This document shows, piece by piece, positions 5,152 through 26,431 of a stretch of 64,000 bases of DNA. The DNA comes from Verrucomicrobiota bacterium (GTDB taxonomy: Bacteria > Verrucomicrobiota > Verrucomicrobiia > JAWXBN01). The translations under genes and the position numbers were made by a program. Positions within the stretch are counted from its first letter, which is position 1; each line of letters starts with the position of its first letter. The stretch covers positions 20,031 through 84,030 of the forward strand of contig JAWXBN010000053.1 in NCBI GenBank assembly GCA_034440155.1, read 5' to 3'. The notes beneath the pieces were generated by a model. The model made no database searches. It was given only the letters and a program-made list of their open reading frames with translations, and was not told where the DNA came from.

Positions 5152-5182
5152 TATAATGGAATGCCATCAATAGTTACTGGTA

Positions 5183-6547
5183 TTAGAATGATGCTCCAAT
5201 ACCAATGGTAACCTGATTTTGTGTAAAACTGAAATTTGAAACATTAGATTCATTGACATTGTACTGATAACCACCATAAATCCTCAACCACTCTTGAAGG
5301 AGATATGTTAAATTTACTCCTGCCGTGTAGTTATTGTCATTACGTGCTACATTTCCTATACCCACATAATTTACAGGATTTTGAAAATCAACATTATTCC
5401 AGTTAAAGAATGCACTCGCCGTTAACTTTTGTGTGATTTTTTGGGAGAGTGTTAAATTTGTGCCTGTATTATAATACATATTATTAACTTCAGTAATTGA
5501 TTGGTTAATTGATCTGTAAACATTTAAACTAGCTGTTGTTTTTGTTGTAATCGCATAAGAAAAATTTGCACCACATGTAAATGAAAACGACTGACTCCCC
5601 CCCCCAATTGAATCCTTTGAATCGCCTATAAAAGCTGTTCCACTAGCTGTGCTCGTCAATTTTCCTGTATTAGCAGATATACCTGCGCCGATGGTGCCAC
5701 CTCGACTATCATTACTAGGAGCAACACGACTTAAAGTACCACCTTGTTGTCCGGTTGTTACGTTAGCCGTCTCGAAAGTTTGATTCCCTTGGAATACATT
5801 ATTAATTGCATTTACAGCATAACCAACATTAAAAAATCCTGAATAAGTGGTATTAAAGACCCTATTTATTCCTACACCCACATTGTATCCATTGATATCT
5901 TGGCCTTGGCTAACAGTATTATTAGACCAGTTTCCAAAAAGGTTGAATGTTGTTAATTCGTCGAACGAATATCCAAGACTCGCTCCAATAACATTCTGGG
6001 CATTATCCACCAAACCGAAACTAGTAAAGTTATTGAACTGATGATTGAAATATGTGCTTAATGTAAATTTTTCTGAAAGTCTCCAAATACTTGTAATTCC
6101 TGAATTAAGATTCCCACTGGGTATATACTCACCAACTAATGTATTTGCACCCGTTGAAAAATTATAATTCAGAAATGATGAAATAGTAAAACGGTTAAAA
6201 ACCGATGCTTGTGTAAATGTCAGGTTATTTCCCCAGTTATCCTGGCTTTGTTGATCTACAAAATTTACTATTGAAGCCGTATAATCCATACTGAGTTTTA
6301 AGGCCTCAGTTTGTCCTACGCTGATTTGAACCCCTGGCTGTGTATTAAAACTCCAAGCACTCACACGATTTGTATTAGAAATGAAAATATTATCATTGTA
6401 GTTGGCCGTCTGGTCTATGTGGGGCCTAATACTTAATACGCCTACCTGTAATGGTTTTGCTTGTATAACTACTGAAGAGCAAATAAAACAAGTAATTATT
6501 CCTAAAATAGAAATATATAACTTAGACAGTAATTTGGTCGGTTTCAT
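5183..6547 (-). CDS. outer-membrane beta-barrel protein (EpsL-like, PEP-CTERM/EPS-associated)
   Basis: N/S/T/G-rich alternating pattern and C-terminal aromatic residue (...GIGASF) typical of OM beta-barrels. Likely start is MKPTKLL... (signal peptide) at 6547 rather than the TTG at 6583. Confidence 0.55.
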   Translation of the reverse strand: MKPTKLLSKLYISILGIITCFICSSVVIQAKPLQVGVLSIRPHIDQTANYNDNIFISNTNRVSAWSFNTQPGVQISVGQTEALKLSMDYTASIVNFVDQQSQDNWGNNLTFTQASVFNRFTISSFLNYNFSTGANTLVGEYIPSGNLNSGITSIWRLSEKFTLSTYFNHQFNNFTSFGLVDNAQNVIGASLGYSFDELTTFNLFGNWSNNTVSQGQDINGYNVGVGINRVFNTTYSGFFNVGYAVNAINNVFQGNQTFETANVTTGQQGGTLSRVAPSNDSRGGTIGAGISANTGKLTSTASGTAFIGDSKDSIGGGSQSFSFTCGANFSYAITTKTTASLNVYRSINQSITEVNNMYYNTGTNLTLSQKITQKLTASAFFNWNNVDFQNPVNYVGIGNVARNDNNYTAGVNLTYLLQEWLRIYGGYQYNVNESNVSNFSFTQNQVTIGIGASF

Positions 6548-6717
6548 CGTTTTGTATAGTTTTTGTGTTTGTGACATTAGCAATCAAACCATATTTGAAA
6601 TTTGAGACATTAATATTTAAACCATATCTGAAATTTGAGTCAATAACAATATCAGCATAAATTTCCATCAGTTTTTACGTAAATTCATTACGATTAAATT
6701 AGCTGTTAAATAATCCA

Positions 6718-7413
6718 TCACCACTGTGTTGTATTAAATGTCACAGTCTCTCCCAAAATGAATTTTGTAGATGGGTCTCCTTCAGCTTTTATCTGGATTC
6801 TTTTCCCTCCAACCAGCAAGGAGAACTGGTTATATATAGCATAGTGGTCTACAAAAAAGGCAATTTCAATATCAGATTGTTTTTTTGCTGGCGCAAGGAG
6901 ACGTCCCACTTGTCTTTTATCCTCTGGTTTATCAGCTTCTTTAAAATACGTGTACCCCCTGCCATCAATTAATTCCACAGAATTAGGATTTATACGAAAG
7001 TCTTCGTCGCTTAAATTATCGACCGAAAAACTCGCGGTAACATTAAATCTGGCCCCATTCTTGGTTACATTTACTTTTTCTAAGGTTGCATGTATTCCAT
7101 TGTCCAAGTCAATTTTCTCCCCGTAGGCGGCGGTAGGTAATTTAAATGGTTCCGACGGGGAGGTTCTAGAGGGTTCTACCCCCGGCGCCGTCATAGGATA
7201 ATCATCGTACTGGTTAAATGATTTATAGTATTGGAAGGCCCGGTATCCAAATACCACGAGGCATGCGGCAATAAACAAGAAAGCCAAACTTTTCGCAAAT
7301 ATTTTAATACGATAGCGACGTCTCCACTTTCGATGAACTTTTTTTCGGGGATCCATGTAGTCGTAATCGCTCATAATTACCTTTAAATATGACTGAAATA
7401 GGCTTATAATCAA
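6718..7413 (-). CDS. hypothetical membrane-anchored protein
   Basis: 231-aa ORF with one N-terminal TM (LAFLFIAACLVVFGY) and a beta-rich C-terminal domain. No family recognised. True start may be the internal MSDYDYM. Confidence 0.4.
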   Translation of the reverse strand: MIISLFQSYLKVIMSDYDYMDPRKKVHRKWRRRYRIKIFAKSLAFLFIAACLVVFGYRAFQYYKSFNQYDDYPMTAPGVEPSRTSPSEPFKLPTAAYGEKIDLDNGIHATLEKVNVTKNGARFNVTASFSVDNLSDEDFRINPNSVELIDGRGYTYFKEADKPEDKRQVGRLLAPAKKQSDIEIAFFVDHYAIYNQFSLLVGGKRIQIKAEGDPSTKFILGETVTFNTTQW

Positions 7414-12782: not shown

Positions 12783-14096
12783 CTACTCACCGAGTAATTT
12801 TTTCAGGCGTGCAAGTTGCACATTCACCTTGGCTACATTCTCCTCGCGTTCTTGCGAGTTTTTGATGGTGTTTTGTTTTGGTGTAATCACTATGTTACGA
12901 CCGAGATTTCCAGCTATTTTCGATTGCTGTACCGGGGCTTGGATTGTCACGGTCTGGGCAATGGATTTGGCTGGATTAGATTGAGAAGCAACAGATGGTT
13001 TTGCGACCGTCACAGTAGATCCCCCCCCACCATAACTCATGACACCCGTTTGTAACTGTAGATCATCTTGAAGGCTGCGATGTGGCTGGATCCCCATTCC
13101 TTGCAGGACTCCATGATAGGCTTTAACAGCCTCTTCAGGCGTAATCTTCCCTTCCACTATCAAGCGGAGGAACTGGATAAAGGCGAGTTGATGTTCGGCC
13201 ATATTGATCTTACGCCCAAAGAGCGCCACACGTGCCCCGTACTTTTGTGCTTCAGAGATCAGTTTAAAGGCATCATAAGTCGTTCCTGCTCCTCCACCGA
13301 GAATACCGGCTACAAGCTGCGGGTCATAAGAAACAAGTTCCTCCATGGCCTTCGGCCCATGATAGACGATCTTGAGGAACTGGGGACGTCCAGCGGAGGT
13401 TACTCCGGCTAGGGAACGGATGATATGGTCATTGATAAAGCTGCCGAGTTTTTCATCCGAGACTCCGGCATCAATATTCGGGTCGAAAACCTCAAGAAAA
13501 TATTTAAAACCTTTTCTCTCGGCTTCCTCGCGAAATGTTTTGAAGGCACACAATGAATACTTGTCTCGGTCGACATCATTGGTAAATGTCACTGAATACA
13601 ACCCGAGATTTGCCCCCGTCACATCCTCACCTTCGCCACACTCTACTTTCCCGCATTGGATATGGTCTATCGAAGCCGTACGGAAGGGTTGTGAAGCTTG
13701 TTTGATGTATTGGCTCCCCCTCACCACCCAGATATCTGTTGTATCATTTGCACGAGCAGCAGGAGTAATGTGAGAATTCTGGAATAACCCCTCTTTCATG
13801 GCTAACTGCTCGATATTTGAGGCAGAAGCCAACATGATATCAACAAACCCCTGTTTGATCACCTCCCTGATCTGCTGGCGGTATTCTTCCAATGATTTGA
13901 AATGGGCCTCACCCTTCGCATAAGCTTCAGGTGATTGCCCCGCTTTGGGTCCAGGCGCCGCAGCCCCAAAAGCCATATCGGCGTCCTTCGCATCGGCAAT
14001 AATAAAGGCCTTGCTGGAATGAGGATTCTGCCTGATTTCAGCGAGTTTTTGATCAAGTGATTTATTCATAAAAAATTCCTGATAATTAATTTCCAA
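12783..14096 (-). CDS. DhnA/FbaB-type class I aldolase family protein with about 85-aa low-complexity C-terminal tail
   Basis: 437 aa. C-terminal TIM-barrel region GILGGGAGTTYDAFKLISEAQKYGARVALFGRKIN parallels E. coli FbaB (INSGGAAGGETDLSDAV...LILGRKAFK). Followed by GGGGS linker, a Q/S/T/P-rich stretch and a terminal predicted helix ENVAKVNVQLARLKKLLGE. Confidence 0.55.
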   Translation of the reverse strand: MEINYQEFFMNKSLDQKLAEIRQNPHSSKAFIIADAKDADMAFGAAAPGPKAGQSPEAYAKGEAHFKSLEEYRQQIREVIKQGFVDIMLASASNIEQLAMKEGLFQNSHITPAARANDTTDIWVVRGSQYIKQASQPFRTASIDHIQCGKVECGEGEDVTGANLGLYSVTFTNDVDRDKYSLCAFKTFREEAERKGFKYFLEVFDPNIDAGVSDEKLGSFINDHIIRSLAGVTSAGRPQFLKIVYHGPKAMEELVSYDPQLVAGILGGGAGTTYDAFKLISEAQKYGARVALFGRKINMAEHQLAFIQFLRLIVEGKITPEEAVKAYHGVLQGMGIQPHRSLQDDLQLQTGVMSYGGGGSTVTVAKPSVASQSNPAKSIAQTVTIQAPVQQSKIAGNLGRNIVITPKQNTIKNSQEREENVAKVNVQLARLKKLLGE

Positions 14097-14529
14097 GTCC
14101 TAATTGCTGATTTTTTATCCTTTTACGTATTAGAAAACCTATTACTGCACTCAGCAAAGCAATCAACAGGCTTGAAAAGAGAAATATTGAATTGCTCCAG
14201 TGATAATGGTTTTCAGCAAGAACCAGCATGAATATAGAAAATATCGATACACAGACAATGATCCTAGTCTGTTTTAAATCTAAGTGATATTTTTGTGCCC
14301 GTTTTGCATCATTACATATCAAGGTCTTGGCTTTTTTGCCATATTTTCGAGATAATATTGCGAACGGAAGGAATAATAAAAATGGTGAGATTAGGGCGGA
14401 AATATTCATTTTTCCATTATCCCCTCTATGTCCTATCAAAAGAGGAGTAACAACCAAAAAGATAATCGAAAGAACAGAAGCCAAGAGTGCTATGTTCTGA
14501 TGCTTTTTGATTTGTTTTTCTTCATCCAT
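14086..14529 (-). CDS. small hypothetical integral membrane protein
   Basis: 147 aa, about 4 TM helices. Overlaps the downstream aldolase-like gene by 11 nt (operonic). No family recognised. Confidence 0.45.
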   Translation of the reverse strand: MDEEKQIKKHQNIALLASVLSIIFLVVTPLLIGHRGDNGKMNISALISPFLLFLPFAILSRKYGKKAKTLICNDAKRAQKYHLDLKQTRIIVCVSIFSIFMLVLAENHYHWSNSIFLFSSLLIALLSAVIGFLIRKRIKNQQLGLGN

Positions 14530-14555: not shown

Positions 14556-15488
14556 CTATGCTTTAACCTTAGCCAATGTGTCTTTCAGAGCCTTGGCTGA
14601 TGCTTGGAGTCCATTGAGCTCTTTAGGCCAGAGTTCAACCTCGATCCGCTTTTCAGCCCCGCCTCGACCGACGATGGTGGGTACACTCAGACAAATATCC
14701 CGAATCCCGTATTCCCCGCGCATGTAGCTCGACACCGGCAGGATTGCTTTCCGGTCAAGGGCAATCGCTTCCACCACGACCTTGATGGCGACTCCCACGG
14801 CCCAACCTGCTCCACCTTTACGACTGATCACCTCGGCTCCACTGCCTTTAGTGCGTTCAAAAAGCTTTGTCTGGAGCTGAGGCGTCATCCCTGGGAAATT
14901 TGCGAGTGAAATCCCGTCTACAGTCGCTGAGGACCACACGGGAATCATGGAGTCACCATGTTCACCCAAGATCAGGGCGCGAACCTGGGTTGCCGGCAGA
15001 TTGAGTTCAGCAGCGATTAACGAGCAAAACCTTGAGGTATCGAGCATGGTCCCCAGACCAATAACGCGTGACTCTGGAAGCCCGAGTTTTTGTAGGGCAA
15101 GTTGCGTCAGGATATCGACAGGATTACTGACCACAAAAATATAAGCATCATCACGGAGACGGGCTGCCTTTAAACTTTCAAGAATTTGGAGAAAAAGAGA
15201 AACATTCCGGTTAATCAGGTCGAGGCGTGATTCGTCCGGTTTACGGCGCAGTCCTGCCGTAATGACAATCATATTACACTGCGCCATTTGCTCGTATCCA
15301 CAGGAGTATATTTTCTGGTCACCACAAAATGCCGCCCCATGCAACAAATCCAAGGCCTCACCCTCAGCAGTCGCCACATTCGCATCCAAGAGAGCAATTT
15401 CTTTAACAATCCCGCCGCACTGCAAGGCAAAAGCCGCACAACTGCCGACACGTCCCCCTGCACCGATGATTCCGACTTTTAAACTCAT
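14556..15488 (-). CDS. mdh: malate dehydrogenase (LDH-like MDH family)
   Basis: 310 aa. Rossmann GIIGAGGRVGS. Substrate loop ITAGLRRKPDESRLDL carries Arg at the LDH-Q102 equivalent position, the MDH signature. Catalytic H in GEHGDSMIP. Confidence 0.75.
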   Translation of the reverse strand: MSLKVGIIGAGGRVGSCAAFALQCGGIVKEIALLDANVATAEGEALDLLHGAAFCGDQKIYSCGYEQMAQCNMIVITAGLRRKPDESRLDLINRNVSLFLQILESLKAARLRDDAYIFVVSNPVDILTQLALQKLGLPESRVIGLGTMLDTSRFCSLIAAELNLPATQVRALILGEHGDSMIPVWSSATVDGISLANFPGMTPQLQTKLFERTKGSGAEVISRKGGAGWAVGVAIKVVVEAIALDRKAILPVSSYMRGEYGIRDICLSVPTIVGRGGAEKRIEVELWPKELNGLQASAKALKDTLAKVKA

Positions 15489-15566: not shown

Positions 15567-16613
15567 TTATTTTCCGCCAAAAGCTTTCATGATCTCATTA
15601 GTGATTTTTTGAACCGCTTCTTCTGGCACTTCCACTTCTGCTGCTTTGGCCGATTCGTTCCCGGTCTTGCACCCGCAAGAGCCTGTCGCCGTTTTACCAC
15701 GCAAGACTTCCCACGGATCAACTTCACAGAGTTGCACCGGCTTTAATCCCTCCCGGGGATCTGGCATCCCGAGTTTACTCCGGAGTTCAAGCAATTTACC
15801 CACTTCATCACTCGGAATCGTGCTGTCACCCTTTAACGGCATGGCATTCAAAAGGGTACGGCAATAAGCATCCGTGATTTCCATTTTCCAATAAGCATCT
15901 TCCACCCCAAATCCCCAACAAATAACCCCGTGGTTGCCCATCAGGATTGATTGGTGTTCGGCCGCCAATGGCTGGATGATCTCGGCCATTTCTTTCCCGC
16001 CGGGTGTCTTATAAGGGGCCAAGGGAGCGCGCCCCACAAAAACCTCATATTCGGGAATCAAACAAGCGGGAGGCTCGATTCCGGCTATGGCGAAAGCTGT
16101 GGCATGAACCGGGTGGGCATGGACGACGGCTTTAGCATTTGAGTTCCCCTTATAAAGGGCTAGATGGGTCGTGATTTCACTCGTGCGTTTACTGGAACCG
16201 GCAATTTGATTCCCTTCCAGATCCACCATACAAATCATATCCGGAGTCATAAATCCCTTACTCACCAATGTCGGGGTACAAAGGACTTGATTCTGTCCGA
16301 TACGGTAAGAAATATTCCCCCCGTTCCCGTCAACATATTCACGAGTCCAGAGCCGGCGACCCATTTCACAAATCTCTTTTTTGACGCGTTCGGCTTCTTC
16401 CGAAAAAAACATTGCCTGAACAGGATCAGAAGACGAAGATGCCGAAACACTTACGCCACTCTGGGCAATTTGCGCGGAGACAATAATTTTAATCTGATTT
16501 TCAGAAAAAACATCTTTGGCCCCGGGAGTAACGATAACCCCCGCTAGAACAGTAAATTCTTTTTTGCCGGTGGAGGCAAATTGCATCGCATCTTTTTCTG
16601 TGAAGAGTTTCAT
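15567..16613 (-). CDS. class II aldolase (fuculose/rhamnulose-1-phosphate aldolase-like), BMC-targeted
   Basis: 348 aa. Class II aldolase core from about residue 75 (GNGGNISYR...HAHPVHATAFA). C-terminal linker plus amphipathic helix EEAVQKITNEIMKAFGG looks like a BMC encapsulation peptide. About 70-aa N-terminal extension of unknown function. Confidence 0.8.
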   Translation of the reverse strand: MKLFTEKDAMQFASTGKKEFTVLAGVIVTPGAKDVFSENQIKIIVSAQIAQSGVSVSASSSSDPVQAMFFSEEAERVKKEICEMGRRLWTREYVDGNGGNISYRIGQNQVLCTPTLVSKGFMTPDMICMVDLEGNQIAGSSKRTSEITTHLALYKGNSNAKAVVHAHPVHATAFAIAGIEPPACLIPEYEVFVGRAPLAPYKTPGGKEMAEIIQPLAAEHQSILMGNHGVICWGFGVEDAYWKMEITDAYCRTLLNAMPLKGDSTIPSDEVGKLLELRSKLGMPDPREGLKPVQLCEVDPWEVLRGKTATGSCGCKTGNESAKAAEVEVPEEAVQKITNEIMKAFGGK

Positions 16614-16619
16614 AATTTA

Positions 16620-16916
16620 TTATTCCTGGTATGTTTTTCCTTGATAAAAATATTCATCGATGAGACCCGCACAATAGGCATCCACAGGCCGAGCCGGGTC
16701 GAAAGGGCAGGCAGCCTCACGGCCTTCACTGATGGCGATCGTCTGCCCCTGACTGGCTCCTAACTCGTCATAAACAACAATGGCAAAGTCGGTCGCTTTC
16801 TTCTCACCAGCAAAACGCTCCTGTTTCCAAGGCGCTACCAGCAAAAGCCTCTCACCGACATAACTTTCATGCCGTCTCGACAAGACCACGCGGCCTATGA
16901 CTGTTCCAAATCTCAT
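16620..16916 (-). CDS. BMC vertex protein (BMC-P; EutN/PduN/CcmL family)
   Basis: 98 aa. MRFGTVIGRVVLSRR...ERLLLVAP matches the EutN-family N-terminus. Confidence 0.8.
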   Translation of the reverse strand: MRFGTVIGRVVLSRRHESYVGERLLLVAPWKQERFAGEKKATDFAIVVYDELGASQGQTIAISEGREAACPFDPARPVDAYCAGLIDEYFYQGKTYQE

Positions 16917-17188
16917 GCGTTTAAATTCACTCCGTCGTCAATTACCCCCAGCACCGCCCAACGGGCAGGACTGAGTTCACTACCGACAATTTTCCGGGCT
17001 TCCGAGCCGTCACTGGAAATAATGACTTTTGATCCGATCCCAGCTCCAAAAGTATCAATCACCAGTTGCGGAGCCCCGTCATTAAAATCGTCATAGGAAA
17101 GAGGTTGTGCAATCATCAGACGCCACCCCTCGAGTGAAACATGTTTCACCTCGGCTGTTGCATAACCTTCTATCCGTGCGATTTTCAT
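16913..17188 (-). CDS. BMC vertex protein (BMC-P; EutN/PduN/CcmL family)
   Basis: 91 aa. MKIARIEGYATAEVKHVSLEGWRLMIAQPL... Overlaps the next BMC-P gene by 4 nt. Confidence 0.8.
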   Translation of the reverse strand: MKIARIEGYATAEVKHVSLEGWRLMIAQPLSYDDFNDGAPQLVIDTFGAGIGSKVIISSDGSEARKIVGSELSPARWAVLGVIDDGVNLNA

Positions 17189-17195
17189 TCGTTAA

Positions 17196-18656
17196 TCAAT
17201 AAATCTTGAGTTGATCGACCATGACACAGCGACGGCTGCGGGTGAATGTCATCGGTGTGGTGACTCCTTCTCCCGTCGGGGTCGCGATACTAAAGCTCAG
17301 AAAACCTTCACCTCCCAAACCCAAACCTGTCATGCTCGGACCGTTCTTGATGTAAAGTGTCGTATCTACGGCTTGAGCCATTTTCGTCATATTGACGACA
17401 TTCTGGGAATGAATGATGGCTGTGTGTTTATAACCATGCTCGGCACGAACCGCTGCGGCCACCGCATCGTCAAAATTCTTTACCCGTACAATCGGGATAA
17501 AGGGCATCATCTGCTCTTCTTCCACAAAGATATGATCTTCAGGGGTCACCCCAAAAAGTAACTGTGTCGATGCTGGCACATCTAGCCCTGCAATTTTAGC
17601 CAATACTGAAGCATCGGCTCCCACGAGCTTGCGATTCACACTCGGATGAGCGCAACCCGCGCCTTGGCCTTCGGGGAATACAAAAGCTTCTTGGGTGAGT
17701 TTTTCGATTTGGGCTGCATTTAATTGGACTGCCCCGTGTTTCTTGAGGGCGGCAATCAAGGCGTCGGCTACTTTCTCCACCACAAAAACTTCCTTTTCGC
17801 CGATGCAGAGCAAATTGTTATCATAAGAAGCTCCTTGGATGATTGCCGAGGCCGCCTGATCGAGGTTTGCGGTTTCATCCACGACGACAGGGGGATTTCC
17901 CGGACCGGCACAAACGGCACGTTTTCCTGATGCCATGGCTGCTTTGACTACCGCAGGGCCGCCTGTAACGCAGAGCAAACGGACAAACGGGCTCTTGCAC
18001 ATGGTATTAAAGGATTCAAGAGTTGGTTTCTCCACCATAGACAACATATCGCTGATCCCTGTGACCTTTTCGATTTCACGGTTGTAAACACGCAAGGCAA
18101 TGGCCGCACATTTTGCCGCACTCGGATGACAGTTAAAAACAATCGTGTTCCCCGCAGCAATCATATTAATCGCATTGCCCGTAATGGTAGGAACACTGTG
18201 GGTCGACGGGGTAATCGCCCCGATCACGCCCCATGGCGTATATTCGATCACTGTTAACCCGTGATCACCACTGAAAGCGTCGTGTTTGAGGAATTCCACA
18301 CCTGGAACCAAATCACCACAAATGCCCAGCTTCTCGATTTTATGATCCAAGCGCCCTATTTTGGTTTCTTCGAACTCAATCCGGCCCCACTCTTGGGCAT
18401 TTTGCACACAGAGTTTACGGATGACATTAATCGCTTTTTTACGGGCTTCGACCCCGGCGGCCTGGAGCTTTTGAAAAGAAACATCAGCAGCGGCAATGGC
18501 TTCTTCCATCGTGGGGTACACACCGTATCCACCGGCACTCACCGGTATACTGGAGACCGGCGTAGCGGGAGTCGCCTGTGGAGCACCAGCTCCCAAACTT
18601 GCCAACACCTGTTGAACCACCCTTGCGATTGTATCATCATTAATTTGTGTGTTCAT
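17196..18656 (-). CDS. CoA-acylating aldehyde dehydrogenase (PduP/EutE-like) with N-terminal encapsulation peptide
   Basis: 486 aa. ALDH fold with catalytic Cys in NLLCIGEKE. N-terminal amphipathic helix DDTIARVVQQVLASL followed by a G/A/P/T-rich linker is typical of BMC encapsulation peptides. Confidence 0.85.
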   Translation of the reverse strand: MNTQINDDTIARVVQQVLASLGAGAPQATPATPVSSIPVSAGGYGVYPTMEEAIAAADVSFQKLQAAGVEARKKAINVIRKLCVQNAQEWGRIEFEETKIGRLDHKIEKLGICGDLVPGVEFLKHDAFSGDHGLTVIEYTPWGVIGAITPSTHSVPTITGNAINMIAAGNTIVFNCHPSAAKCAAIALRVYNREIEKVTGISDMLSMVEKPTLESFNTMCKSPFVRLLCVTGGPAVVKAAMASGKRAVCAGPGNPPVVVDETANLDQAASAIIQGASYDNNLLCIGEKEVFVVEKVADALIAALKKHGAVQLNAAQIEKLTQEAFVFPEGQGAGCAHPSVNRKLVGADASVLAKIAGLDVPASTQLLFGVTPEDHIFVEEEQMMPFIPIVRVKNFDDAVAAAVRAEHGYKHTAIIHSQNVVNMTKMAQAVDTTLYIKNGPSMTGLGLGGEGFLSFSIATPTGEGVTTPMTFTRSRRCVMVDQLKIY

Positions 18657-18692
18657 AATCGATTTTCATCCTGATCAAACGGCATTATCGTT

Positions 18693-19001
18693 CTACTTAT
18701 TCTTGTATATTTCACGTCCATGGAGATCGACCGCGTCGACGATGCCGATAATGACAGCATCGACGGGTGTATCCTTATCCTTGGCGGCCAGACGGGCGGA
18801 GCTTCCTTGCACAACAAGCACGAGCTCACCCACGCCGGCCCCGAGGCTATCCGTCACCACGATTGTCGATGATGAAGCTTTGAATTCCTTAGCGTCCGGC
18901 CCTTCAGCAGTGACAGGACGCACGACGAGCAGTTTCTGCCCGGTCATTTTTTCATTCTTCTTGGTCGCGACCAGCGCGCCCTCGACTTTGGCTAGGATCA
19001 T
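18693..19001 (-). CDS. BMC vertex protein (BMC-P; EutN/PduN/CcmL family)
   Basis: Likely start is the internal MILAKVEGALVATKK... (about 102 aa). The ORF track extends 25 codons further upstream. Confidence 0.8.
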   Translation of the reverse strand: MILAKVEGALVATKKNEKMTGQKLLVVRPVTAEGPDAKEFKASSSTIVVTDSLGAGVGELVLVVQGSSARLAAKDKDTPVDAVIIGIVDAVDLHGREIYKNK

Positions 19002-19102
19002 AATACTTTTCCTTCTATGCAGATGAAGGCGTAATGAATCATCCGTTAACACCGGACCACCCACTCCATCCCGCAAACTGCCTCAGGTTATACTGGCTTA
19101 AA

Positions 19103-19384
19103 TTATTTTGTCTTGGGGAGTATACCCAGGATTTCGTCATGAGGACGGGGAATCACGCTGGTGGTAATAATTTCTCCACCAATAGCGGCGGCGGCTGTAC
19201 GACCAGCCTCTGTTGCGGCTTTAACAGCGGCGACATCACCGGTGACAACGCTCGTGACCATGGCGTTACCGACTTGTTGGTAACCCACGAGTTTAACATT
19301 CGCGCTTTTGAGCATCGCGTCGGTAGCCTCGACCAATGCGACGAGCCCACGTGTTTCAATGAATCCTAATGCTTGTTGTGACAT
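19103..19384 (-). CDS. BMC hexamer shell protein (BMC-H, Pfam00936)
   Basis: 93 aa. MSQQALGFIETRGLVALVEATDAMLKSANVKLVGY... Canonical PduA/EutM-type BMC domain. Confidence 0.9.
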   Translation of the reverse strand: MSQQALGFIETRGLVALVEATDAMLKSANVKLVGYQQVGNAMVTSVVTGDVAAVKAATEAGRTAAAAIGGEIITTSVIPRPHDEILGILPKTK

Positions 19385-19435
19385 ATTTTTGTTTTCCTAT
19401 TTTTGTTTTTTAAGTTGGTTAAAAATTTAGTTCTA

Positions 19436-20647
19436 TTATTGATGCAGAAGCTTCCAAGCATTCCGCGCGATAATCGTTTCTTCCGATGTCGGGATCAACA
19501 TGATGCGCGTTTTACTCGAAGGCTTCGAGAGCGTTACTTCCGTTTTGGGTGCTGTTTTATTAGTTTCTAAGTCGAGCTCAATCCCGAGCCCGTCGAGACC
19601 CGCGCAAATTGCTTCACGCAGCCAAGGGTTATTTTCGGCAATACCGGCTGTGAAGATCAATACATCACAACCACCAAGCTCGACAAGGAATTGACCGATA
19701 TAATTCCGAATATTCTTCACCAGGACTTTCAGTGCCATTTGCGCATCCACGCTTCCTTCATCAGCAGCCTTCAAGACATCGCGCAAATCCCCTGTGGGTG
19801 TGCCCGCCATTCCTTTGAGTCCGGCTTCTTTCATGAGCATTTGCTCTACTTTTTCCACGCCCAAACCCAGGTCGCGGATCAGGTAGATCAGTGCAAAGCT
19901 ATCAAAGTCACCGACACGGTTATTTTGGGGCAAACCACTCTGCGGTGTCATTCCCCAACTCGAATCCACAGCCACACCACCCTTGACCGCAGCAATCGAT
20001 GAACTCCCCCCCAAATGGCAGGAAATCATCCGCAAATTGCCCGCACCTAAAATCTCGGCGGCACGCTCAGTCACAAACCGGTGGCTGGCTCCATGGAACC
20101 CGTTGCGGCGAATCCCGTATTTATCATGCCACTCTTGAGGAATGGCAAATCGGGTATTCTGCTCGGGAACATGGTCGTAGAAGGCTGTTTCGAATGTACC
20201 GACACAGGGAATCTCTGGATAGTCCTTCTGAAAAAGACGCACCGCATTTACATACGGCGGATTATGCGCGGGCAGGAGGGTATAGATTTCCTCCATGGCC
20301 TTGAGCACATCCTCGGTCATTTCCACAGTCCCACTGATTCCCTTGGCCATTACCGGTTTGAACCCAATCGCTTTGACTTCGTCCATGGAGGTAATCACAC
20401 CTTCCTCGGTATCCATCATGGATTCAAAAGCCATATGAATGGCGGTCGGATAATCTGGAATCGGACAGGTTTTCTTCTGCGCTATCCCGCCCATCTTTTG
20501 ATAAGAATAGATACCGTCCTGCGAACCAATCCGTTCCACCCCTCCTTTACAGAGGAAAGTCTCATCGGGCATCGAAAATACAACGAATTTGAACGAAGTA
20601 CTTCCAATATTGGCTACGAGTATTTTATTTTTTTGCACGGACGACAT
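19436..20647 (-). CDS. ackA: acetate/propionate kinase
   Basis: 403 aa. ILVANIGSTSFKF N-terminal ATPase motif and ASKHH-family core. Confidence 0.9.
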   Translation of the reverse strand: MSSVQKNKILVANIGSTSFKFVVFSMPDETFLCKGGVERIGSQDGIYSYQKMGGIAQKKTCPIPDYPTAIHMAFESMMDTEEGVITSMDEVKAIGFKPVMAKGISGTVEMTEDVLKAMEEIYTLLPAHNPPYVNAVRLFQKDYPEIPCVGTFETAFYDHVPEQNTRFAIPQEWHDKYGIRRNGFHGASHRFVTERAAEILGAGNLRMISCHLGGSSSIAAVKGGVAVDSSWGMTPQSGLPQNNRVGDFDSFALIYLIRDLGLGVEKVEQMLMKEAGLKGMAGTPTGDLRDVLKAADEGSVDAQMALKVLVKNIRNYIGQFLVELGGCDVLIFTAGIAENNPWLREAICAGLDGLGIELDLETNKTAPKTEVTLSKPSSKTRIMLIPTSEETIIARNAWKLLHQ

Positions 20648-20725
20648 AGGGATATCTATCGATCTAATATTTTATGTGTGTAAAAAGGTTCCCGCCTAGA
20701 AATAACGAATCCGGCGGAAAATCCC

Positions 20726-21019
20726 TTATTTGGCTGCGGTAGCTCCACCGATCCATTTACCCATTCCAGCGAGTTCATCATGCGGACGGGGGATGACATG
20801 GACAGCGACGACTTCACCGACAGCGGCAGCGGCGGTGGCCCCTGCTTCGATAGCGGCTTTAACAGCAGCGACATCACCCTTTACAAAAGCCGTGACATTT
20901 CCTGAGCCGATCTTTTCCCAACCAACGATCTGGACATTGGCGGATTTGAGCATTTCATCGGTCGCTTCGAGTAATGCGACCAATCCTTTTGTTTCAACCA
21001 TACCTAGAGCTTGTGACAT
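20726..21019 (-). CDS. BMC hexamer shell protein (BMC-H)
   Basis: 97 aa. [34 protein letters not shown]... Confidence 0.9.
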
Positions 21020-21045
21020 AAATTTCTTTTCTCCGTATTTTAAAA

Positions 21046-21315
21046 TTAAGCGATATAAACCTTGAGCAGATCCGGATGGGGATTTGCGATGACATGACTG
21101 GCGACCAGTGTTCCAATGCGTTGAACCACTTCGCGCCCGGAATCAACTGCAGCTTTAACACTGCCTACATCTCCGCGGACAACGACAGTGACCATAGCAC
21201 CACCGATTTGGATCATTTTGACGAATTCGACATTCGCCGCCTTACACATGGCGTCTGTCGCCTCGGCGAGGCCGACGTAACCTTTAGTTTCGAGTAGTCC
21301 GATTGCTTGACTCAT
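21046..21315 (-). CDS. BMC hexamer shell protein (BMC-H)
   Basis: 89 aa. [34 protein letters not shown]... Confidence 0.9.
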
Positions 21316-21376
21316 ATTTTCCTTCTTTTCTTTGGGTTTGGGTTAGATTGTTTATTTTGTGTGTTAAAATCTTCGA

Positions 21377-22054
21377 TTAGACGAGCTCTACCTGTTCCGC
21401 CCTGTCGAGATCACAGGCATTTGCCTCATCGGTATCGATGTGGACCTCGAGTTTAAATGAGGGATCTACACGCACGAGCATGTCTTCAAAAACGGTCGTA
21501 CATTTAGGGGCTGTGATCCGCAGTTTCATATTATCCAAGTGTTTGACACCGTAAAACTCCGCATCAGATGGGCTCATATGAACATGGCGTGAGGCACGGA
21601 TAATCCCATCGGGCATTTCCCACGAGCCTTTCGGCCCGATCAATATCCCGCTGGTAGTCCCTGAAATATCCGCGGACATCCGGACGGGAATATCTAACCC
21701 GAGCTGGATCGAATCGCTGTAAGCAAGCTCGACTTGGTTAAGATTCCGGCATGGCCCGAGAATGCGGAGATTCGGGATGATCCTTTTCTTCGGCCCGATC
21801 AAAGTAACGGTTTCATTCGCCGCAAATTGCCCTTCTTGGTAAAGCCATTTGAAAACGGTGAGCTTGTGCCCGGCACCAAAAAGTTTTTCGACGGCTTCCT
21901 GAGTAAGATGGCAGTGGCGCGCGGAAGAATTTACGACTAATAATGGAACAGTTTTACCCGTCCTCGATGCAGCACCTGCTAATTGATTTTTCAGCGCCTG
22001 GCGGACGAGTTGCTCGACAGTGCCACGATCATAACTTGGATTCCCCTTAATCAT
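21377..22054 (-). CDS. pduL: phosphate propanoyl/acyltransferase PduL with N-terminal encapsulation peptide
   Basis: 225 aa. Two PduL repeats with SARHxHL-type motifs (VNSSARHCHL, IIRASRHVHM). N-terminal helix GTVEQLVRQALKNQL plus linker. Confidence 0.85.
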   Translation of the reverse strand: MIKGNPSYDRGTVEQLVRQALKNQLAGAASRTGKTVPLLVVNSSARHCHLTQEAVEKLFGAGHKLTVFKWLYQEGQFAANETVTLIGPKKRIIPNLRILGPCRNLNQVELAYSDSIQLGLDIPVRMSADISGTTSGILIGPKGSWEMPDGIIRASRHVHMSPSDAEFYGVKHLDNMKLRITAPKCTTVFEDMLVRVDPSFKLEVHIDTDEANACDLDRAEQVELV

Positions 22055-22866
22055 GCGATCGACTCCTTCTGGGTTAAATTTCTCTTAGATCCCTGTACTG
22101 CGACAACCACCTGGACGCCGGTCCGCTTGACCATTTTAAGGTGTTCGTCAGGAATGCCCTCAGAGGTGATCCAGTAATCAAAATCTTCAAATTGGGCAAA
22201 TGCCACAGGGCGATTCTGCCCCCATTTTGAGGCGTCCACCACCAAAATCGTCTTTTCGGCCCGTTTCATGAAAAGCTTTTTCATCTGTGCCTCGGTAAGC
22301 TCTGTGGTTGTGGCACCCCGTTCAAGCGAAAGCCCCGATGAACTCAAAATGGCGAAATCCGCAGATAATTGCTCCATCCATTGCGTGGAAAGCTCCCCAA
22401 CCAAAGCTTGGTTCACCACGCGCAATTGTCCCCCGATACAAATCACTTGGGCTTGGGTGCTATGCGCCGCGGTTAAAAGGGGAATGGAATTGGTAATAAT
22501 CGTTAAATCCTTCCGCCGTAAAAGGCGGCGACCAATCTCCATACATGTCGAACCGGAATCCACAAATACAGAGGAATTTGATGGAATAAGATCAATAACC
22601 GTATCGGCAATGGCCTGTTTGTCCAGACGGTTCTCCTGGGCTTTCTGTTCGTAACTGGGTTCCCCATTGAAATAGGATGGATGCATGACCCCACCATGAA
22701 TCCTGATTAATTTACCCGATTCCTCCAGCTCTGTGAGGTCACGGCGCAGGGTTGCAGGGGAAACCCCCAAGGCTTTCTCAAGGGTCTGCACACTCAGACG
22801 GCCCTTCCGGTCGAGAAGCGAAGTTATTTTTTGAAAGCGCTCGTGAGCGAACATGAGCGAATTCAA
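22051..22866 (-). CDS. DeoR/GlpR-family transcriptional regulator
   Basis: 271 aa. N-terminal HTH (LSVQTLEKALGVSPATLRRDLTELEE) plus sugar-phosphate-binding C-terminal domain. TTG start at 22866 or ATG at 22854. Confidence 0.85.
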   Translation of the reverse strand: MNSLMFAHERFQKITSLLDRKGRLSVQTLEKALGVSPATLRRDLTELEESGKLIRIHGGVMHPSYFNGEPSYEQKAQENRLDKQAIADTVIDLIPSNSSVFVDSGSTCMEIGRRLLRRKDLTIITNSIPLLTAAHSTQAQVICIGGQLRVVNQALVGELSTQWMEQLSADFAILSSSGLSLERGATTTELTEAQMKKLFMKRAEKTILVVDASKWGQNRPVAFAQFEDFDYWITSEGIPDEHLKMVKRTGVQVVVAVQGSKRNLTQKESIA

Positions 22867-22948: not shown

Positions 22949-25900
22949 TCAGTCTACCTTCAGGATGACTTCCGAGAGGATAATCGAGAGTTCCGCTAGA
23001 CGATAAGGCTTTGGTAAAGCCGCTTTAAAGCCCATTTGGGAAAAACTCATCATTGTTTCTTCTTCCGAATACCCGCTGGAAGCAATCGCCCTCACCTCCG
23101 GATCAATCTGCTTCAATCGCCTGAGGGTTTCGACGCCACCAATGCCTCCTTGGATCGTCAAGTCCAGAATTAAGGCATCAACCCGGGTTCCATTTGCTTT
23201 AAGCTTTAAAAACGCCTCTACACAATCTTCTCCGTGAGATGTTTTGACCGCCTGATACCCGAGCACCTCGATAGTTTCCGCCAAAGTATTCAGGATCATC
23301 TCATTATCATCCATAATCACAATCAATCCCTGTCCCTCGATCACATTCTCGGACATCCTGCGGGGGGATGTATCCTGACTATCCGTAGCTGGTAAGGTCA
23401 CAGAAAAAACAGTTCCCTTTGTGGATGAAGAGGAGAACTGGATGCTTCCCCCGTGTTTACCGATAATCGAATGGCTAATGGCCAACCCCAATCCTGTGCC
23501 ATTTTTCTTGGTGGTGAAATAAGGGTTAAAGATATTCCTTTGAACTTCCCTCGGGATACCCGGCCCATTATCGGCCACTGAAAATGAAACAAATTTAGTC
23601 ACCTGATTGCCCGTGGAGGGTAACTCGATATTCTCCGCATAGACCTTGATTTTTCCACCTTCACCGAGCACCTGCCGTGCATTCAGTGCGAGATTGTATA
23701 TAACCTGTTTGATCTGGCCTTCATCGGCATTCACACGGAATAAATCATCAGGAATATTGTATTCGCAAGCAATTTGCGAACCCCGGAGCGCAAACCGGGA
23801 GGCTTCCGTGAGTAATTCTGCTAAGCTGGTTACCTGTTTGATTGGTGCCCCCCCTCGCGCAAAAGTCAGGAGCTGCTTGGTTAATTGCTGGGCTTCATCA
23901 CAAACTTTGAGGATATCATCGAGATACTCCCGTGTTTTAGACTGGATAACCTCTTGATTTTTCACTAAGGAGGCATTCATCACGATCGTCGACAAGAAGT
24001 TATTGAAATCATGGGCTATACCCCCTGCCAAAATCCCGACTGACTCGAGCCTTTGATTCCGTTCATTCCTTTCATCCTCACGTTTTTTATCGGAGATGGC
24101 ATGAATAAAAAGGATAATTCTGAAAACCTCGCCTTGGGAATTATAAATAGGGCTAAACCGTGTATGCCACCAGAAAAGATCGTCCTCCCCCGTGATCGAC
24201 AGCTCCGCCTCGCATGTCTCCTGTTTCAGCAAACACTCTTCCAGAAGTGCAAACAACCCGTCTCCCGCTTCCTGCGGGAGGAGCCGCCTACATTCATAAA
24301 CGTCGTTTTCCAGCAAGATGTGACAATTCTCCGTGTCGACAACCTTCCTGAACGCGTTATTCAGTGCGACACAATGTAAACTCCCATCATCATTCTTCTC
24401 AATGACTGCCAACATGGTATCTACCCCGTCAAAGATCGATTTAAAGAAAGCTTCACTCTGGATAAGCTGTTCCTCGGCAGACTTTTTATCTGTGATATCA
24501 TGGGCGATTCCTGCCACTCGCCGCACGTTTCCGTCATCATCACGGATGGGGTAACCCCTATCCCTAATCCACCGGACGGATCCGTCAGCCATGACTATCC
24601 GGTACTCCTTGTCGTAAAGGACATCCTTCCCCTGCTGGATCGACATTTTTACTACCCAAGGGCGGTCATCGGGATGGATGGCCTCCAACCAATCGAGCGG
24701 GTCTTTAAGTAGTTTGTCTACCGATCTCCCCCAGACCTTCTCATACGATGGGTTCACATAGACCATCAGGTCGGTCTTCGCATCCCATATCCAGAAAACA
24801 TCATAGATATTTTCCGTAATCTGAAGGAACCGCTCTTCATTTTCTTTAAGCTTTTCCTCTATGATTTTTCTCTCTGTGATGTCTAGGGCAAACCACACCG
24901 TATAAATATTCTCAGGATTACTCTCGACTAAATCACTCCCGATCAGTGCCATGGCCAAGGCCCCGTCTTTACGGATGAACTCCTGTTCGATCAACGTCGG
25001 CCCCCCTTCATTATTCCTCTCCCTGACAAACTCATGGGTCTGACCAGGCCGTTTCATCATGAGGGAATCAATTTTGAGTCTGCCCGCTTGGATATCCTCA
25101 TGGCTGTAACCCGTCATTTTTAGGAAATATTCATTACAATCCCGGATCACCCCTTTTGCCCCCGTGAAAAAGACACCGACAAGATCAGACTCAAAAACCT
25201 TTCTGAACCGGGATTCATTTTCCTTGAGGGCATTTTGTGTCTTGACCCTATTAGACACATCACGACTGCTGCAAACAAGATGCATTTCATCATCACCCTG
25301 GGCAGAAAGCGATTTTATAGTGGACTCTAGCCACTTATAGTCACCCCCTTTACAGGCAAACCGATAGGTAACACTACAAGCACTTAACTCATCCTTGAGC
25401 ATGGAGAAATGCTGTCCAACAAGTATTTGCTCATCCGGATGAACAAACTCCATGATCTTCTGACCAATTAACTCTTCTGGATCATGACCGATTATCACAC
25501 TACACGAAGGCGAAACATATTGAAGGGTCAAATCCTCATCTAAAAGACAAATCATGTCCGAGGAATGCTCGGCAAGCAAACGGTAACGGGCTTCACTTGC
25601 AAGGGAGGCTTCCTCCGCCGTTTTCCTTTCGGTGATATCCCTGCACAAACCGATCACTTGACACACAGCACCTCCACTATCCCTCTTAAAAACCGCCTCA
25701 CTACTGCGGAACCAGCGGAATCCGCCCCCTTTAAGGATCATACGGTACTCCATATCGATCACATCACCGTCATTGAGTCCGAGATACAGACCCTGGTGCT
25801 CGATAAATGCCGGATAATCATCGGGATAAATCACTGTTTCTATTACTTTAGTTCCCATTTCGATAATCTCTTCCGGTGTGTAGCCCGCCCGGTCAAAAAT

Positions 25901-26431
25901 GCTCCGGTTACAAAAAATATTCTTCCTTTCGATGCTATCAAAAATATACAGGATATCCGGGACTGTATGATTAATCCTTTCCGCAAATTCCTTACTACTG
26001 AAAAGTTCATTCTCGGTATTCTTGCGGGCTGTAATATCCTTGGCGAATACCAATCGTGCTTTTACACCATTAAAAACAAACTCATGGGACTCCACCTCGA
26101 CCCAGATAACCGTCCCATCTTTCTTGAGATGTTTCCATTCAGCTTCATGGGTAAATTTTTGTAAGGCCTCGGTGAGGAATTCCTTGAGGACAAGCACATC
26201 TTCCGCATGCCTGATATCAAAAATAGTCATCGATGAAAATTCTTCTTTGGAATAACCGTATTGGCGGACAGCGGCAGGGTTCACGTCCTGGAATCGAAAT
26301 GTCCCGACGTCATAAATATACATCGGCAAAGGGTTACACTCAAAAATCAAACGGAATGAGTCAGGACCAAAATTTTGCAGGGTTTGGTCCTGATCTTGAT
26401 TACCCGGCAGAGGCTTTTTATCTTCTGGCAT
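22949..26431 (-). CDS. hybrid sensor histidine kinase: multiple PAS/PAC domains, HisKA, HATPase_c, C-terminal receiver
   Basis: 1160 aa. At least four PAS-like blocks, H-box GGIAHDFNNFLSTI, G-boxes (GTGLGLAISHSII), receiver with DD...D...K (IMDDNE...LILDL...K). Confidence 0.85.
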   Translation of the reverse strand: MPEDKKPLPGNQDQDQTLQNFGPDSFRLIFECNPLPMYIYDVGTFRFQDVNPAAVRQYGYSKEEFSSMTIFDIRHAEDVLVLKEFLTEALQKFTHEAEWKHLKKDGTVIWVEVESHEFVFNGVKARLVFAKDITARKNTENELFSSKEFAERINHTVPDILYIFDSIERKNIFCNRSIFDRAGYTPEEIIEMGTKVIETVIYPDDYPAFIEHQGLYLGLNDGDVIDMEYRMILKGGGFRWFRSSEAVFKRDSGGAVCQVIGLCRDITERKTAEEASLASEARYRLLAEHSSDMICLLDEDLTLQYVSPSCSVIIGHDPEELIGQKIMEFVHPDEQILVGQHFSMLKDELSACSVTYRFACKGGDYKWLESTIKSLSAQGDDEMHLVCSSRDVSNRVKTQNALKENESRFRKVFESDLVGVFFTGAKGVIRDCNEYFLKMTGYSHEDIQAGRLKIDSLMMKRPGQTHEFVRERNNEGGPTLIEQEFIRKDGALAMALIGSDLVESNPENIYTVWFALDITERKIIEEKLKENEERFLQITENIYDVFWIWDAKTDLMVYVNPSYEKVWGRSVDKLLKDPLDWLEAIHPDDRPWVVKMSIQQGKDVLYDKEYRIVMADGSVRWIRDRGYPIRDDDGNVRRVAGIAHDITDKKSAEEQLIQSEAFFKSIFDGVDTMLAVIEKNDDGSLHCVALNNAFRKVVDTENCHILLENDVYECRRLLPQEAGDGLFALLEECLLKQETCEAELSITGEDDLFWWHTRFSPIYNSQGEVFRIILFIHAISDKKREDERNERNQRLESVGILAGGIAHDFNNFLSTIVMNASLVKNQEVIQSKTREYLDDILKVCDEAQQLTKQLLTFARGGAPIKQVTSLAELLTEASRFALRGSQIACEYNIPDDLFRVNADEGQIKQVIYNLALNARQVLGEGGKIKVYAENIELPSTGNQVTKFVSFSVADNGPGIPREVQRNIFNPYFTTKKNGTGLGLAISHSIIGKHGGSIQFSSSSTKGTVFSVTLPATDSQDTSPRRMSENVIEGQGLIVIMDDNEMILNTLAETIEVLGYQAVKTSHGEDCVEAFLKLKANGTRVDALILDLTIQGGIGGVETLRRLKQIDPEVRAIASSGYSEEETMMSFSQMGFKAALPKPYRLAELSIILSEVILKVD

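Follow-up and report, generated by a model that had tools for sequence, protein, structure and literature searches.

We describe a locus within a 64,000-nucleotide (64-kb) stretch of a Verrucomicrobiota genome (contig JAWXBN010000053.1), here termed the window, which is best explained overall as a bacterial microcompartment (BMC, or metabolosome) locus of the Planctomycetes-Verrucomicrobia microcompartment (PVM) type, an assignment we make with high confidence. The operon itself is an ordinary member of an already known kind and adds one more Verrucomicrobial example to hundreds of catalogued loci, of a type that earlier work ties to the turnover of fucoidan and methyl-pentoses in marine and soil habitats. 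Beyond this, the parts list of the PVM organelle looks incomplete. At the end of the operon lies U437, a conserved, abundant and unannotated protein with a predicted aldolase fold and a tail of the encapsulation peptide (EP) type, which accompanies the operon in both phyla. Furthermore, the signature aldolase carries an N-terminal module that resembles EutQ, the sole shell-cargo adaptor characterised so far. To judge from the text of the BMC literature, as distinct from its locus figures, both the putative EP-tailed class-I-aldolase-fold protein at the end of the PVM operon and the predicted EutQ-like module on the signature aldolase appear to be new. It is conceivable, at somewhat short of an even chance, that PVM BMCs hold an unnoticed second signature-type enzyme (the U437 family, with its own EP) and that the Verrucomicrobial class II aldolase doubles as a shell-cargo tether via its EutQ-like module, which would replace the separate protein PvmL. 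If true, both features would bear on the substrate range of these compartments and on models of their assembly.

Gene content, order and relatives of the PVM operon

On the minus strand, from 22866 to 15567, the ORF listing and Pfam matches place 11 co-directional open reading frames (ORFs) separated by short gaps or 4-nt overlaps. These encode, in order, a DeoR-family regulator, PduL, two BMC-H shell proteins, an acetate kinase, a third BMC-H, a BMC-P pentamer, a CoA-acylating aldehyde dehydrogenase (AldDH), two further BMC-P and a class II aldolase (Table 1). All 11 score above curated Pfam or NCBIfam cut-offs, and three of the proteins (AldDH, PduL and the acetate kinase) exceed curated NCBIfam cut-offs, with the model matched by AldDH, PRK15398, being of the EutE/PduP type. 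PduL aligns with the rPduL structure (PDB 5CUO) at E 2e-33, including the metal-ligand His-x-His, and the aldolase aligns with FucA structures in the PDB at E about 1e-17 with its HxH, NHG and TSE motifs kept, metal ligands included; its AlphaFold2 (AF2) model has a pLDDT of 86. The regulator runs in the direction of the operon and is translationally coupled to PduL, as the stop of the former and the start of the latter overlap by 4 nt, and the acetate kinase lacks any terminal extension. Read as a longer ORF with a TTG start, the first BMC-P matches Pfam from residue 26 onwards. The three BMC-P paralogues are mutually 27–33% identical, which fits a pentamer triplet drawn from distinct clades. 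Hidden Markov models (HMMs) derived from the six shell proteins retrieve those six ORFs and no others in the 64 kb, and hence no BMC-T is present there.

PVM loci are defined by a class II aldolase as signature enzyme together with DeoR, acetate kinase, AldDH, PduL, BMC-H and a BMC-P triplet, and their published range is restricted to Planctomycetes and Verrucomicrobia (PMC4207490; PMC8217296 and its supplement), with 285 such loci catalogued by 2021 (PMC8217296). Every element of this definition is present in the window. Two sets of loci were compared with it: 80 genome loci (one genome per species, chosen by aldolase homology) and 80 metagenome loci sampled by U437 homology alone, for which counts are restricted by the upstream sequence present. 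Among the former, the order PduL-H-H-Ack-H-P-AldDH-P-P-aldolase is identical in about 60 of the 80 species-level loci (Verrucomicrobiota), DeoR adjoins in 55 of 80, and a third BMC-H gene, typical of Verrucomicrobial PVM loci, is found in 59 of 80. Planctomycete-type loci have two BMC-H genes (PMC8217296 supplement), and a Planctomycetaceae contig exhibits the same order with two BMC-H, followed by a gene of the lactate/malate dehydrogenase (Ldh/Mdh) family and U437. The aldolase homology search returned >6,700 proteins; the matches listed cover the whole query and, where these are named by organism, they belong to Verrucomicrobiota, bar one under a cyanobacterial label. Verrucomicrobiota metagenome-assembled genomes (MAGs) are the nearest relatives (62–89% identity), and an uncultured Verrucomicrobiota MAG holds the closest locus, on a contig of 4 kb at 89%.

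Contigs of 80–121 kb from two assemblies labelled Kamptonema cortianum (L081 and L082; GCA_030285465.1 and GCA_030163865.1) carry the same operon and flanks at ~89% protein identity, and are probably Verrucomicrobial contaminants of non-axenic cultures. Their operon includes three additional ORFs (L082 locus coordinates 1585-2106, 4248-4967 and 6476-6919), namely one of 173 aa between BMC-H2 and the kinase, one of 239 aa between BMC-P1 and AldDH, and a 147-aa GxxExxY/PDDEXK_3 ORF between AldDH and BMC-P2. At these three sites the window has gaps of 78, 36 and 7 nt, and the extra ORFs resemble small insertions, the remainder of the operon being identical.

Other aldolase-bearing BMC types (PVM-like/GRM5-related, MIC4 or MUF2) share part of this inventory, as MIC4 and MUF2 also join AldDH, a phosphotransacylase, a PF00596 aldolase and a BMC-P triplet, with an acetate kinase in MIC4 (PMC8217296 supplement). 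However, the MIC4/MUF2-like types possess BMC-T and PduS homologues or belong to other phyla, whereas the window has no BMC-T, the relatives of its locus are Verrucomicrobiota, and its gene order is that of PVM, the Ldh-family gene included. It is therefore very improbable that the locus represents one of these types rather than PVM proper.

Comparison of the PVM locus of the window with that of Planctopirus (Planctomyces) limnophila was made via secondary sources and one Planctomycetaceae contig. The P. limnophila locus is reportedly the pvmA-O cluster of Erbilgin et al. 2014, and the PVM locus type is said to be that of Axen et al. 2014 and Sutter et al. 2021. As far as these sources extend, both loci have DeoR and counterparts of PvmB, PvmD/E (BMC-H), PvmG, PvmH/K/M (BMC-P), PvmJ, PvmN and PvmO, both lack BMC-T, and both place EPs at the AldDH N-terminus, the PduL N-terminus and the aldolase C-terminus. 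The window differs in having three BMC-H instead of two, in lacking a separate PvmL while a TPxARD-type module is fused to the aldolase N-terminus, and, as far as can be judged from these sources, in having a lineage-specific membrane ORF and U437 after the dehydrogenase. Verrucomicrobial PVM loci such as those of Lentimonas, Ca. Fucivorax and Ca. Mariakkermansia (PMC8857213) share with the window the three BMC-H and three BMC-P, the gene order and the aldolase architecture. Most Opitutales loci differ from it, since their DeoR is divergent and neither an Ldh-family gene nor U437 adjoins, whereas planctomycete loci resemble it in both respects, with a co-directional DeoR (as also in the genome locus L002) and with Ldh and U437 after the aldolase.

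A first-pass annotation of the window, made from its letters and ORFs alone, had identified this known system correctly, although its downstream end was cut off. The identity it gave to each gene is borne out by Pfam, as are its single-strand gene list, its PVM assignment (content and order match the published definition) and its statement that BMC-T is missing, which the HMM scan of the 64 kb agrees with; when checked against PF00936 and PF03319, all six shell proteins match, as three BMC-H and three BMC-P. It had spoken of twelve contiguous genes, but both the region and its own list contain 11. It had also called the operon complete at 15567-22866 and devoid of an alcohol dehydrogenase. The 11 genes do lie there and no such enzyme is among them, yet an Ldh/Mdh-family gene begins 78 nt beyond the aldolase and the cluster runs on to 12783. 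As the PVM gene with the corresponding Pfam domains, named PvmO, is predicted to provide the alcohol-dehydrogenase (NAD+-recycling) function (PMC4207490; PMC8217296 supplement), the claim of its lack is misleading.

The dehydrogenase of this downstream extension has no terminal extension of its own. Genes of its family follow the aldolase in 12 of the 80 genome loci (57–76% identity) and stand directly before the U437 homologue in 26 of the 54 metagenome loci with at least 1.5 kb of upstream sequence. The small membrane ORF which comes next has no Pfam match at E up to 10, and its counterparts occur in the closest relatives L081 and L082 only, with none in ~160 other PVM or U437 loci; it is lineage-specific and may not be part of the system. 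From DeoR through the dihydroorotate dehydrogenase gene further downstream, each gap is ≤101 nt. Promoter and terminator scans of 11.8–27.7 kb returned counts at or under shuffle expectation (18 vs 21.8 and 15 vs 16.4), and operon boundaries thus cannot be set in that way.

Table 1. Features of the PVM operon and its downstream extension, in order of transcription (positions in the window)
Feature	Position	Strand	Matches and remarks
DeoR-family transcriptional regulator	22051..22866	-	PF08220 E 3e-17, PF00455 E 1.7e-44
PduL-type phosphotransacylase (PvmB homologue)	21377..22054	-	PF06130 E 1.7e-67; PRK15070 231 bits vs cut-off 209
PduL N-terminal EP (predicted)	21980..22024	-	residues 11-25, GTVEQLVRQALKNQL, then short linker; conserved pattern
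BMC-H shell protein 1	21046..21315	-	89 aa; PF00936 E 1.3e-25
BMC-H shell protein 2	20726..21019	-	97 aa; PF00936 E 1.7e-27
Acetate/propionate-family kinase (PvmG homologue)	19436..20647	-	PF00871 E 1e-95; TIGR00016 321 bits vs cut-off 293
BMC-H shell protein 3	19103..19384	-	93 aa; PF00936 E 4.6e-26
BMC-P pentamer 1	18693..19001	-	102 aa from ATG of MILAKV; PF03319 E 1.2e-28
CoA-acylating aldehyde dehydrogenase, AldDH (PvmJ homologue)	17196..18656	-	PF00171; PRK15398 615 bits vs cut-off 403
AldDH N-terminal EP (predicted)	18594..18638	-	residues 7-21, DDTIARVVQQVLASL, then G/A/P/T linker; hydrophobic moment z = 3.1
BMC-P pentamer 2	16913..17188	-	91 aa; PF03319 E 4.6e-21
BMC-P pentamer 3	16620..16916	-	98 aa; PF03319 E 4.7e-18; 4-nt overlap with BMC-P2
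Signature class II aldolase (PvmN homologue)	15567..16613	-	348 aa; PF00596 E 1e-44
Aldolase N-terminal mini-domain	16479..16613	-	residues 1-45; beta-alpha-beta-beta-alpha-beta, TPxA[KR]D motif (AF2)
Aldolase C-terminal EP (predicted)	15573..15623	-	residues 331-347, EEAVQKITNEIMKAFGG; hydrophobic moment z = 3.1
Lactate/malate-dehydrogenase-family protein (PvmO homologue)	14556..15488	-	PF00056, PF02866
Small predicted membrane protein	14086..14529	-	147 aa, several hydrophobic segments; no Pfam family
U437, unnamed protein, last gene	12783..14069	-	428 aa; class I (DhnA/LsrF/LacD-type) aldolase-like TIM barrel, then linker and helix (AF2)
U437 C-terminal helix, candidate fourth EP	12795..12869	-	residues 401-425 (AF2)

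Predicted encapsulation peptides and the N-terminal module of the aldolase

By the bioinformatic definition of Aussignargues et al. 2015 (PMC4594438), an EP is a terminal amphipathic helix of ~15–20 aa that is joined to its domain through a linker of low conservation, in which small residues abound, and that does not occur in non-BMC homologues. The termini of AldDH, PduL and the aldolase agree with this definition, and targeting is their predicted function. All three helices keep their position and pattern in 40–60 orthologues, and the linkers beside them differ in both length and sequence: PduL retains (V/I)E(Q/R)(L/M)VR.(S/A)L before a variable linker (about 40 orthologues), AldDH retains E..IR.VV.EVL..L (about 45 orthologues), and the aldolase orthologues share E.LVQ.ITD.I. 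In AldDH and in the aldolase, no other terminal segment exceeds the EP helix in hydrophobic moment. From N- to C-terminus, the aldolase comprises a mini-domain, a linker, the aldolase domain, a Cys-containing linker and the EP, with AF2 predicting disorder at 310-328 followed by a helix at 331-344. FucA structures of ~215 aa align only to its residues 71-278, both extensions being absent there, and neither extension has a Pfam match at E up to 10.

The first-pass annotation had read these three EPs correctly, at termini where the helices are indeed conserved and the adjoining linkers variable, and it overlooked the EP-like tail of a fourth protein as well as the second module of targeting type that the aldolase carries. 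None of the three EPs is new. Their positions in this set of enzymes were published earlier (PMC4594438; PMC4784909, within the parts consulted), including a C-terminal EP on BMC aldolases (PMC4594438), and the EP of P. limnophila PduL (residues 1-20) is known to change the oligomeric state of that protein (PMC4784909). Presumably, these short terminal amphipathic helices would recruit AldDH, PduL and the aldolase as cargo. As a separate observation, the linker between the aldolase domain and its EP (15630-15700, minus strand) contains conserved cysteines, QLCEVD...SCGC, and Opitutales linkers (among L004–L045) read KECELCD...C(G/S)C. A metal or redox site could be formed here. High Cys content in aldolase linkers is already listed in a table of PMC4594438, with no explanation found in the part of the paper covered.

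The N-terminal mini-domain is modelled by AF2 at pLDDT 91–98, with helices at 6-14 and 30-38, and is followed by a disordered linker; it is conserved in about 100 Verrucomicrobial PVM aldolases. In a pairwise hhalign comparison, its profile matches residues 1-43 of E. coli EutQ with a probability of 80% (E 1.3e-5, 32% identity over 41 columns). Like the N-terminus of Salmonella EutQ, the module has ~40 residues, two helices and a TP.A[RK][ED] motif (PMC12487888). In EutQ, residues 9-41 (H1/H2) bind the shell, whereas H3/H4 bind cargo EPs (PMC12487888). The module differs from EutQ in residing on the signature enzyme instead of a cupin domain and in lacking the H3/H4 cargo-binding part, and its shell binding is predicted only. 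The likeness is also weaker by hmmsearch, where, among 30,543 ORF segments, EutQ was recovered at E 0.088 and the EutT N-terminus at E 0.0047, which speaks against a close correspondence with EutQ.

The profile of the module also matches 210–300-aa ORFs that are confined to PVM loci of the planctomycete type; these ORFs weakly match the C-terminal end of TIGR02536 (eut_hyp) as well and are presumably PvmL, to judge from their sequences. The aldolase lacks the N-terminal unit in exactly the eight loci having such a PvmL-like ORF (L087, L110, L130, L134, L135, L145, L151 and L159). In these loci the PvmL-like ORFs are found ~1 kb upstream of the aldolase and consist of a TPAARD module and a domain weakly similar to RpiB/LacAB isomerases. 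Conversely, no separate PvmL (PF02441/eut_hyp-like, with an EP) is encoded in the operon of the window, where the 4-nt overlap of BMC-P2 and BMC-P3 leaves no room for it between them, and since ~60 Verrucomicrobial loci are likewise without PvmL, this protein is not universal among PVM loci. From this pattern, the module seems to be a shell- or BMC-association element carried by either PvmL or the aldolase. Residues 1-45 of the aldolase may be the counterpart of the shell-binding region of EutQ; if so, the signature enzyme would also tether cargo to the shell, and in this lineage the tether module would reside on the aldolase instead of a separate PvmL. A EutQ-like module on the aldolase was not found mentioned in the BMC literature, the locus figures lying outside the text covered.

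U437, a predicted aldolase-fold protein at the operon end

U437 is predicted by AF2 to have a confident core, a (beta/alpha)8 barrel most similar to the DhnA/LsrF/LacD/DeoC superfamily, with DhnA, LsrF and LacD, not DERA, as its nearest folds. Structures named beside it are the MJ0400 ADH synthase, two class I fructose-bisphosphate aldolases, LsrF, Cgl0159, a sulfohexulose-1-phosphate aldolase, a tagatose-bisphosphate aldolase and the sulfofructose-phosphate aldolase YihT. Lys233 is invariant in the family, lies in the strand FLK and aligns, by both phmmer and hhalign, with the Schiff-base lysine K203 of E. coli LsrF; from this alignment it would be the catalytic residue, and its place agrees with the sixth-strand lysine expected of this superfamily. 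Sequence models are less favourable to class I aldolase membership. Pfam returns nothing for U437 at E up to 10, PF01791 included, its NCBIfam matches (E 2e-4 to 5e-3) reach 16–21 bits vs cut-offs of 241–430, and the hhalign probability for membership is 20%. Because these models stay far below threshold, we treat U437 as a separate unnamed family of the same fold and not as part of PF01791.

The family is large, with at least 8,000 homologues at 56–90% identity in Verrucomicrobia and Planctomycetes, and all of those listed are either "hypothetical protein" or unnamed, none with a Pfam domain. A Logan contig encodes a 437-aa protein that is 100% identical to U437 over its full length. A homology search for a P. 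limnophila orthologue returned MAG proteins only. Among the metagenome loci, which were sampled by U437 and not by any BMC gene, 33 of the 40 whose upstream sequence spans 3 kb or more have a PVM aldolase in it on the same strand, and 23 of the 29 with 9 kb or more have the complete PVM operon, arranged as aldolase-Ldh-U437 or aldolase-U437.

The tail of U437 is built like an EP. In the AF2 model, the segment before the C-terminal helix has pLDDT below 50 and includes a G/A/S/P/T-rich linker (residues 345-400). Across the family, a conserved ...SYGG is followed by a linker of 15–58 aa with 65% A/G/S/P/T and then by a helix with the pattern RV..QLAR(L/I)R.R(L/F)G in 94 of 120 homologues, most of the others having a variant helix. 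An exhaustive search of 1.84 billion representatives yielded 1,140 U437 relatives, among them proteins of 330–340 aa that end with the barrel and thus lack the tail. All four of the tail-less homologues with readable context reside in sugar operons without BMC genes: P0264 follows genes for a lyxose-isomerase and a ketohexokinase-like kinase, P0255 is accompanied by a plain 215-aa class II aldolase, a 2-hydroxyacid dehydrogenase, an FGGY kinase and ABC permeases, P0245 by an ABC transporter, an FGGY kinase, a Zn-dehydrogenase, a GlpD-like oxidoreductase and DeoR, and P0248 adjoins a GH2 glycosidase. A triad of isomerase, kinase and a third gene, as at P0264, is the classic place of a ketose-1-phosphate aldolase.

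Taken together, the best reading of sequence and model is that U437 is an aldolase-like enzyme of class I, forming dihydroxyacetone phosphate (DHAP), that would enter the PVM compartment through a C-terminal peptide of its own. It would then be a second, Schiff-base-type ketose-1-phosphate aldolase-like enzyme of the same compartment. Several observations weigh against this. The helix is very basic and its Eisenberg hydrophobic moment is unremarkable (z = 1.3), and U437 homologues away from PVM operons retain the tail, which could thus serve another purpose. U437 might instead act on sugar phosphates in the cytosol and share no more than a transcript with the operon, for example to handle DHAP or a side product of the pathway, with the helix acting as an oligomerisation or regulatory element. 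The Arg/Lys-rich helix with its modest moment and the tailed homologues not adjoining PVM operons are both in keeping with such a role. Conversely, the architecture of a domain, a variable A/G/S/P/T linker of 15–58 aa and a short conserved helix is that of the published EP definition (PMC4594438), and the whole extension is missing in four of four homologues from non-BMC sugar operons. Furthermore, the solo copies may be satellite loci, which have been described for PVM (PMC8217296 supplement). We consider the cytosolic explanation less likely than not.

A close parallel to U437 is the signature enzyme of the SPU BMC, a DeoC-family class I aldolase (PF01791) with an EP (PMC11585597). Both have a TIM barrel of the class I aldolase fold and a terminal EP-type extension, and both are encoded in a BMC locus. 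However, U437 has no PF01791 match and folds nearest to DhnA/LsrF/LacD, not DERA, its extension is C-terminal rather than N-terminal as in SPU, and it accompanies a class II aldolase instead of being the sole signature enzyme. In the text of BMC papers and supplements (e.g. PMC4207490, PMC8217296 and PMC4594438, locus figures aside, and each to the extent covered), no mention of a U437-like protein was found.

Substrate and neighbouring genes

PVM-type BMCs have been tied to the use of fucose, rhamnose and fucoidan in culture and in the field (PMC8857213; PMC11685898; PMC13608581), and a route for the window can be proposed from P. limnophila. L-fuculose-1-phosphate or L-rhamnulose-1-phosphate would pass into the shell, where the aldolase would cut it into DHAP and lactaldehyde. 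AldDH would then convert lactaldehyde to lactyl-CoA, yielding NADH, and PduL would form lactyl-phosphate, so that CoA is recycled, before the kinase releases lactate and ATP. Finally, the Ldh-family enzyme would restore NAD+, presumably with a second lactaldehyde as acceptor and 1,2-propanediol as the product.

Three features of the locus sit uneasily with this route. Firstly, the 64 kb contain no fucose or rhamnose isomerase, kinase or transporter, nor any fucosidase or sulfatase, and a fucose/rhamnose substrate would accordingly be inherited solely from the characterised homologue. Secondly, a Tyr or Phe at the position of rPduL Gln77 has been reported for the majority of pvm PduLs as a marker for lactyl-CoA (PMC4784909), whereas, by a residue numbering deduced from the alignment, the Gln would be kept in the PduL of the window (Gln76) and in 60 of 62 Verrucomicrobial PVM PduLs. 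All Verrucomicrobial PVM PduLs share LY(Q/M).GQ(F/Y) at residues 70-78, and in them a conserved Tyr stands four residues upstream of the kept Gln, where rPduL has a Lys. Thirdly, the Ldh-family protein scores on the borderline of two NCBIfam models, with 285 vs 303.6 bits for L-lactate dehydrogenase and 283 vs 283 bits for malate dehydrogenase, and its motif reads GLRRKP. The Arg in this motif is, we presume, at the position that marks malate dehydrogenases, where lactate dehydrogenases usually have Gln. On these sequence grounds, the enzyme may have a substrate other than the one the PVM model assumes.

An alternative is that the shell and core enzymes are as described while the substrate is not, or not only, fucose or rhamnose. 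The two aldolases could take other ketose-1-phosphates, such as xylulose-1-phosphate or deoxy or sulfated sugars, giving glycolaldehyde or other 2-hydroxyaldehydes. Besides the lack of fuc and rha genes in the window and the Gln retained in PduL, this possibility draws on the described promiscuity of class II aldolases (PMC4207490) and on the tail-less U437 homologue that follows the lyxose-isomerase and ketohexokinase-like kinase genes. However, the aldolase is orthologous over its full length to thousands of PVM aldolases, formation or induction of BMCs of this kind on rhamnose, fucose or fucoidan is described for both Verrucomicrobia and Planctomycetes (PMC13608581; PMC11685898; PMC8857213), and in PVM-bearing genomes the genes of the fucose pathway are, at least in part, found away from the shell-gene locus (PMC8857213; PMC11685898). 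On balance, a different or additional substrate is unlikely, and fucose or rhamnose would remain the expected one.

Two groups of genes flanking the operon were considered as parts of the system and ruled out. Upstream, at 22949-26431 on the same strand and 82 nt before DeoR, lies a gene whose 1,160-aa product is a hybrid sensor kinase containing several PAS domains together with HisKA, HATPase and receiver domains; this PAS hybrid histidine kinase has two weak co-occurrences in 80 loci. Downstream, the methyltransferase and dihydroorotate dehydrogenase genes recur in the two closest relatives only. Elsewhere, the window encodes housekeeping functions (PheS, IF3, dihydroorotate dehydrogenase, argininosuccinate synthase, DXS and NAD kinase), an RND efflux system, a GH31 glycosidase and an OprB porin. 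Genes for an exosortase (EpsH), a Wzz/GNVR tyrosine-kinase-like protein, a polysaccharide export protein and a beta-barrel porin at 1122-6583 (minus strand) form an exopolysaccharide/PEP-CTERM-type cluster that is conserved in close relatives, and two neighbouring chagasin-family (I42) peptidase-inhibitor genes are found at 53456-54408, also on the minus strand.

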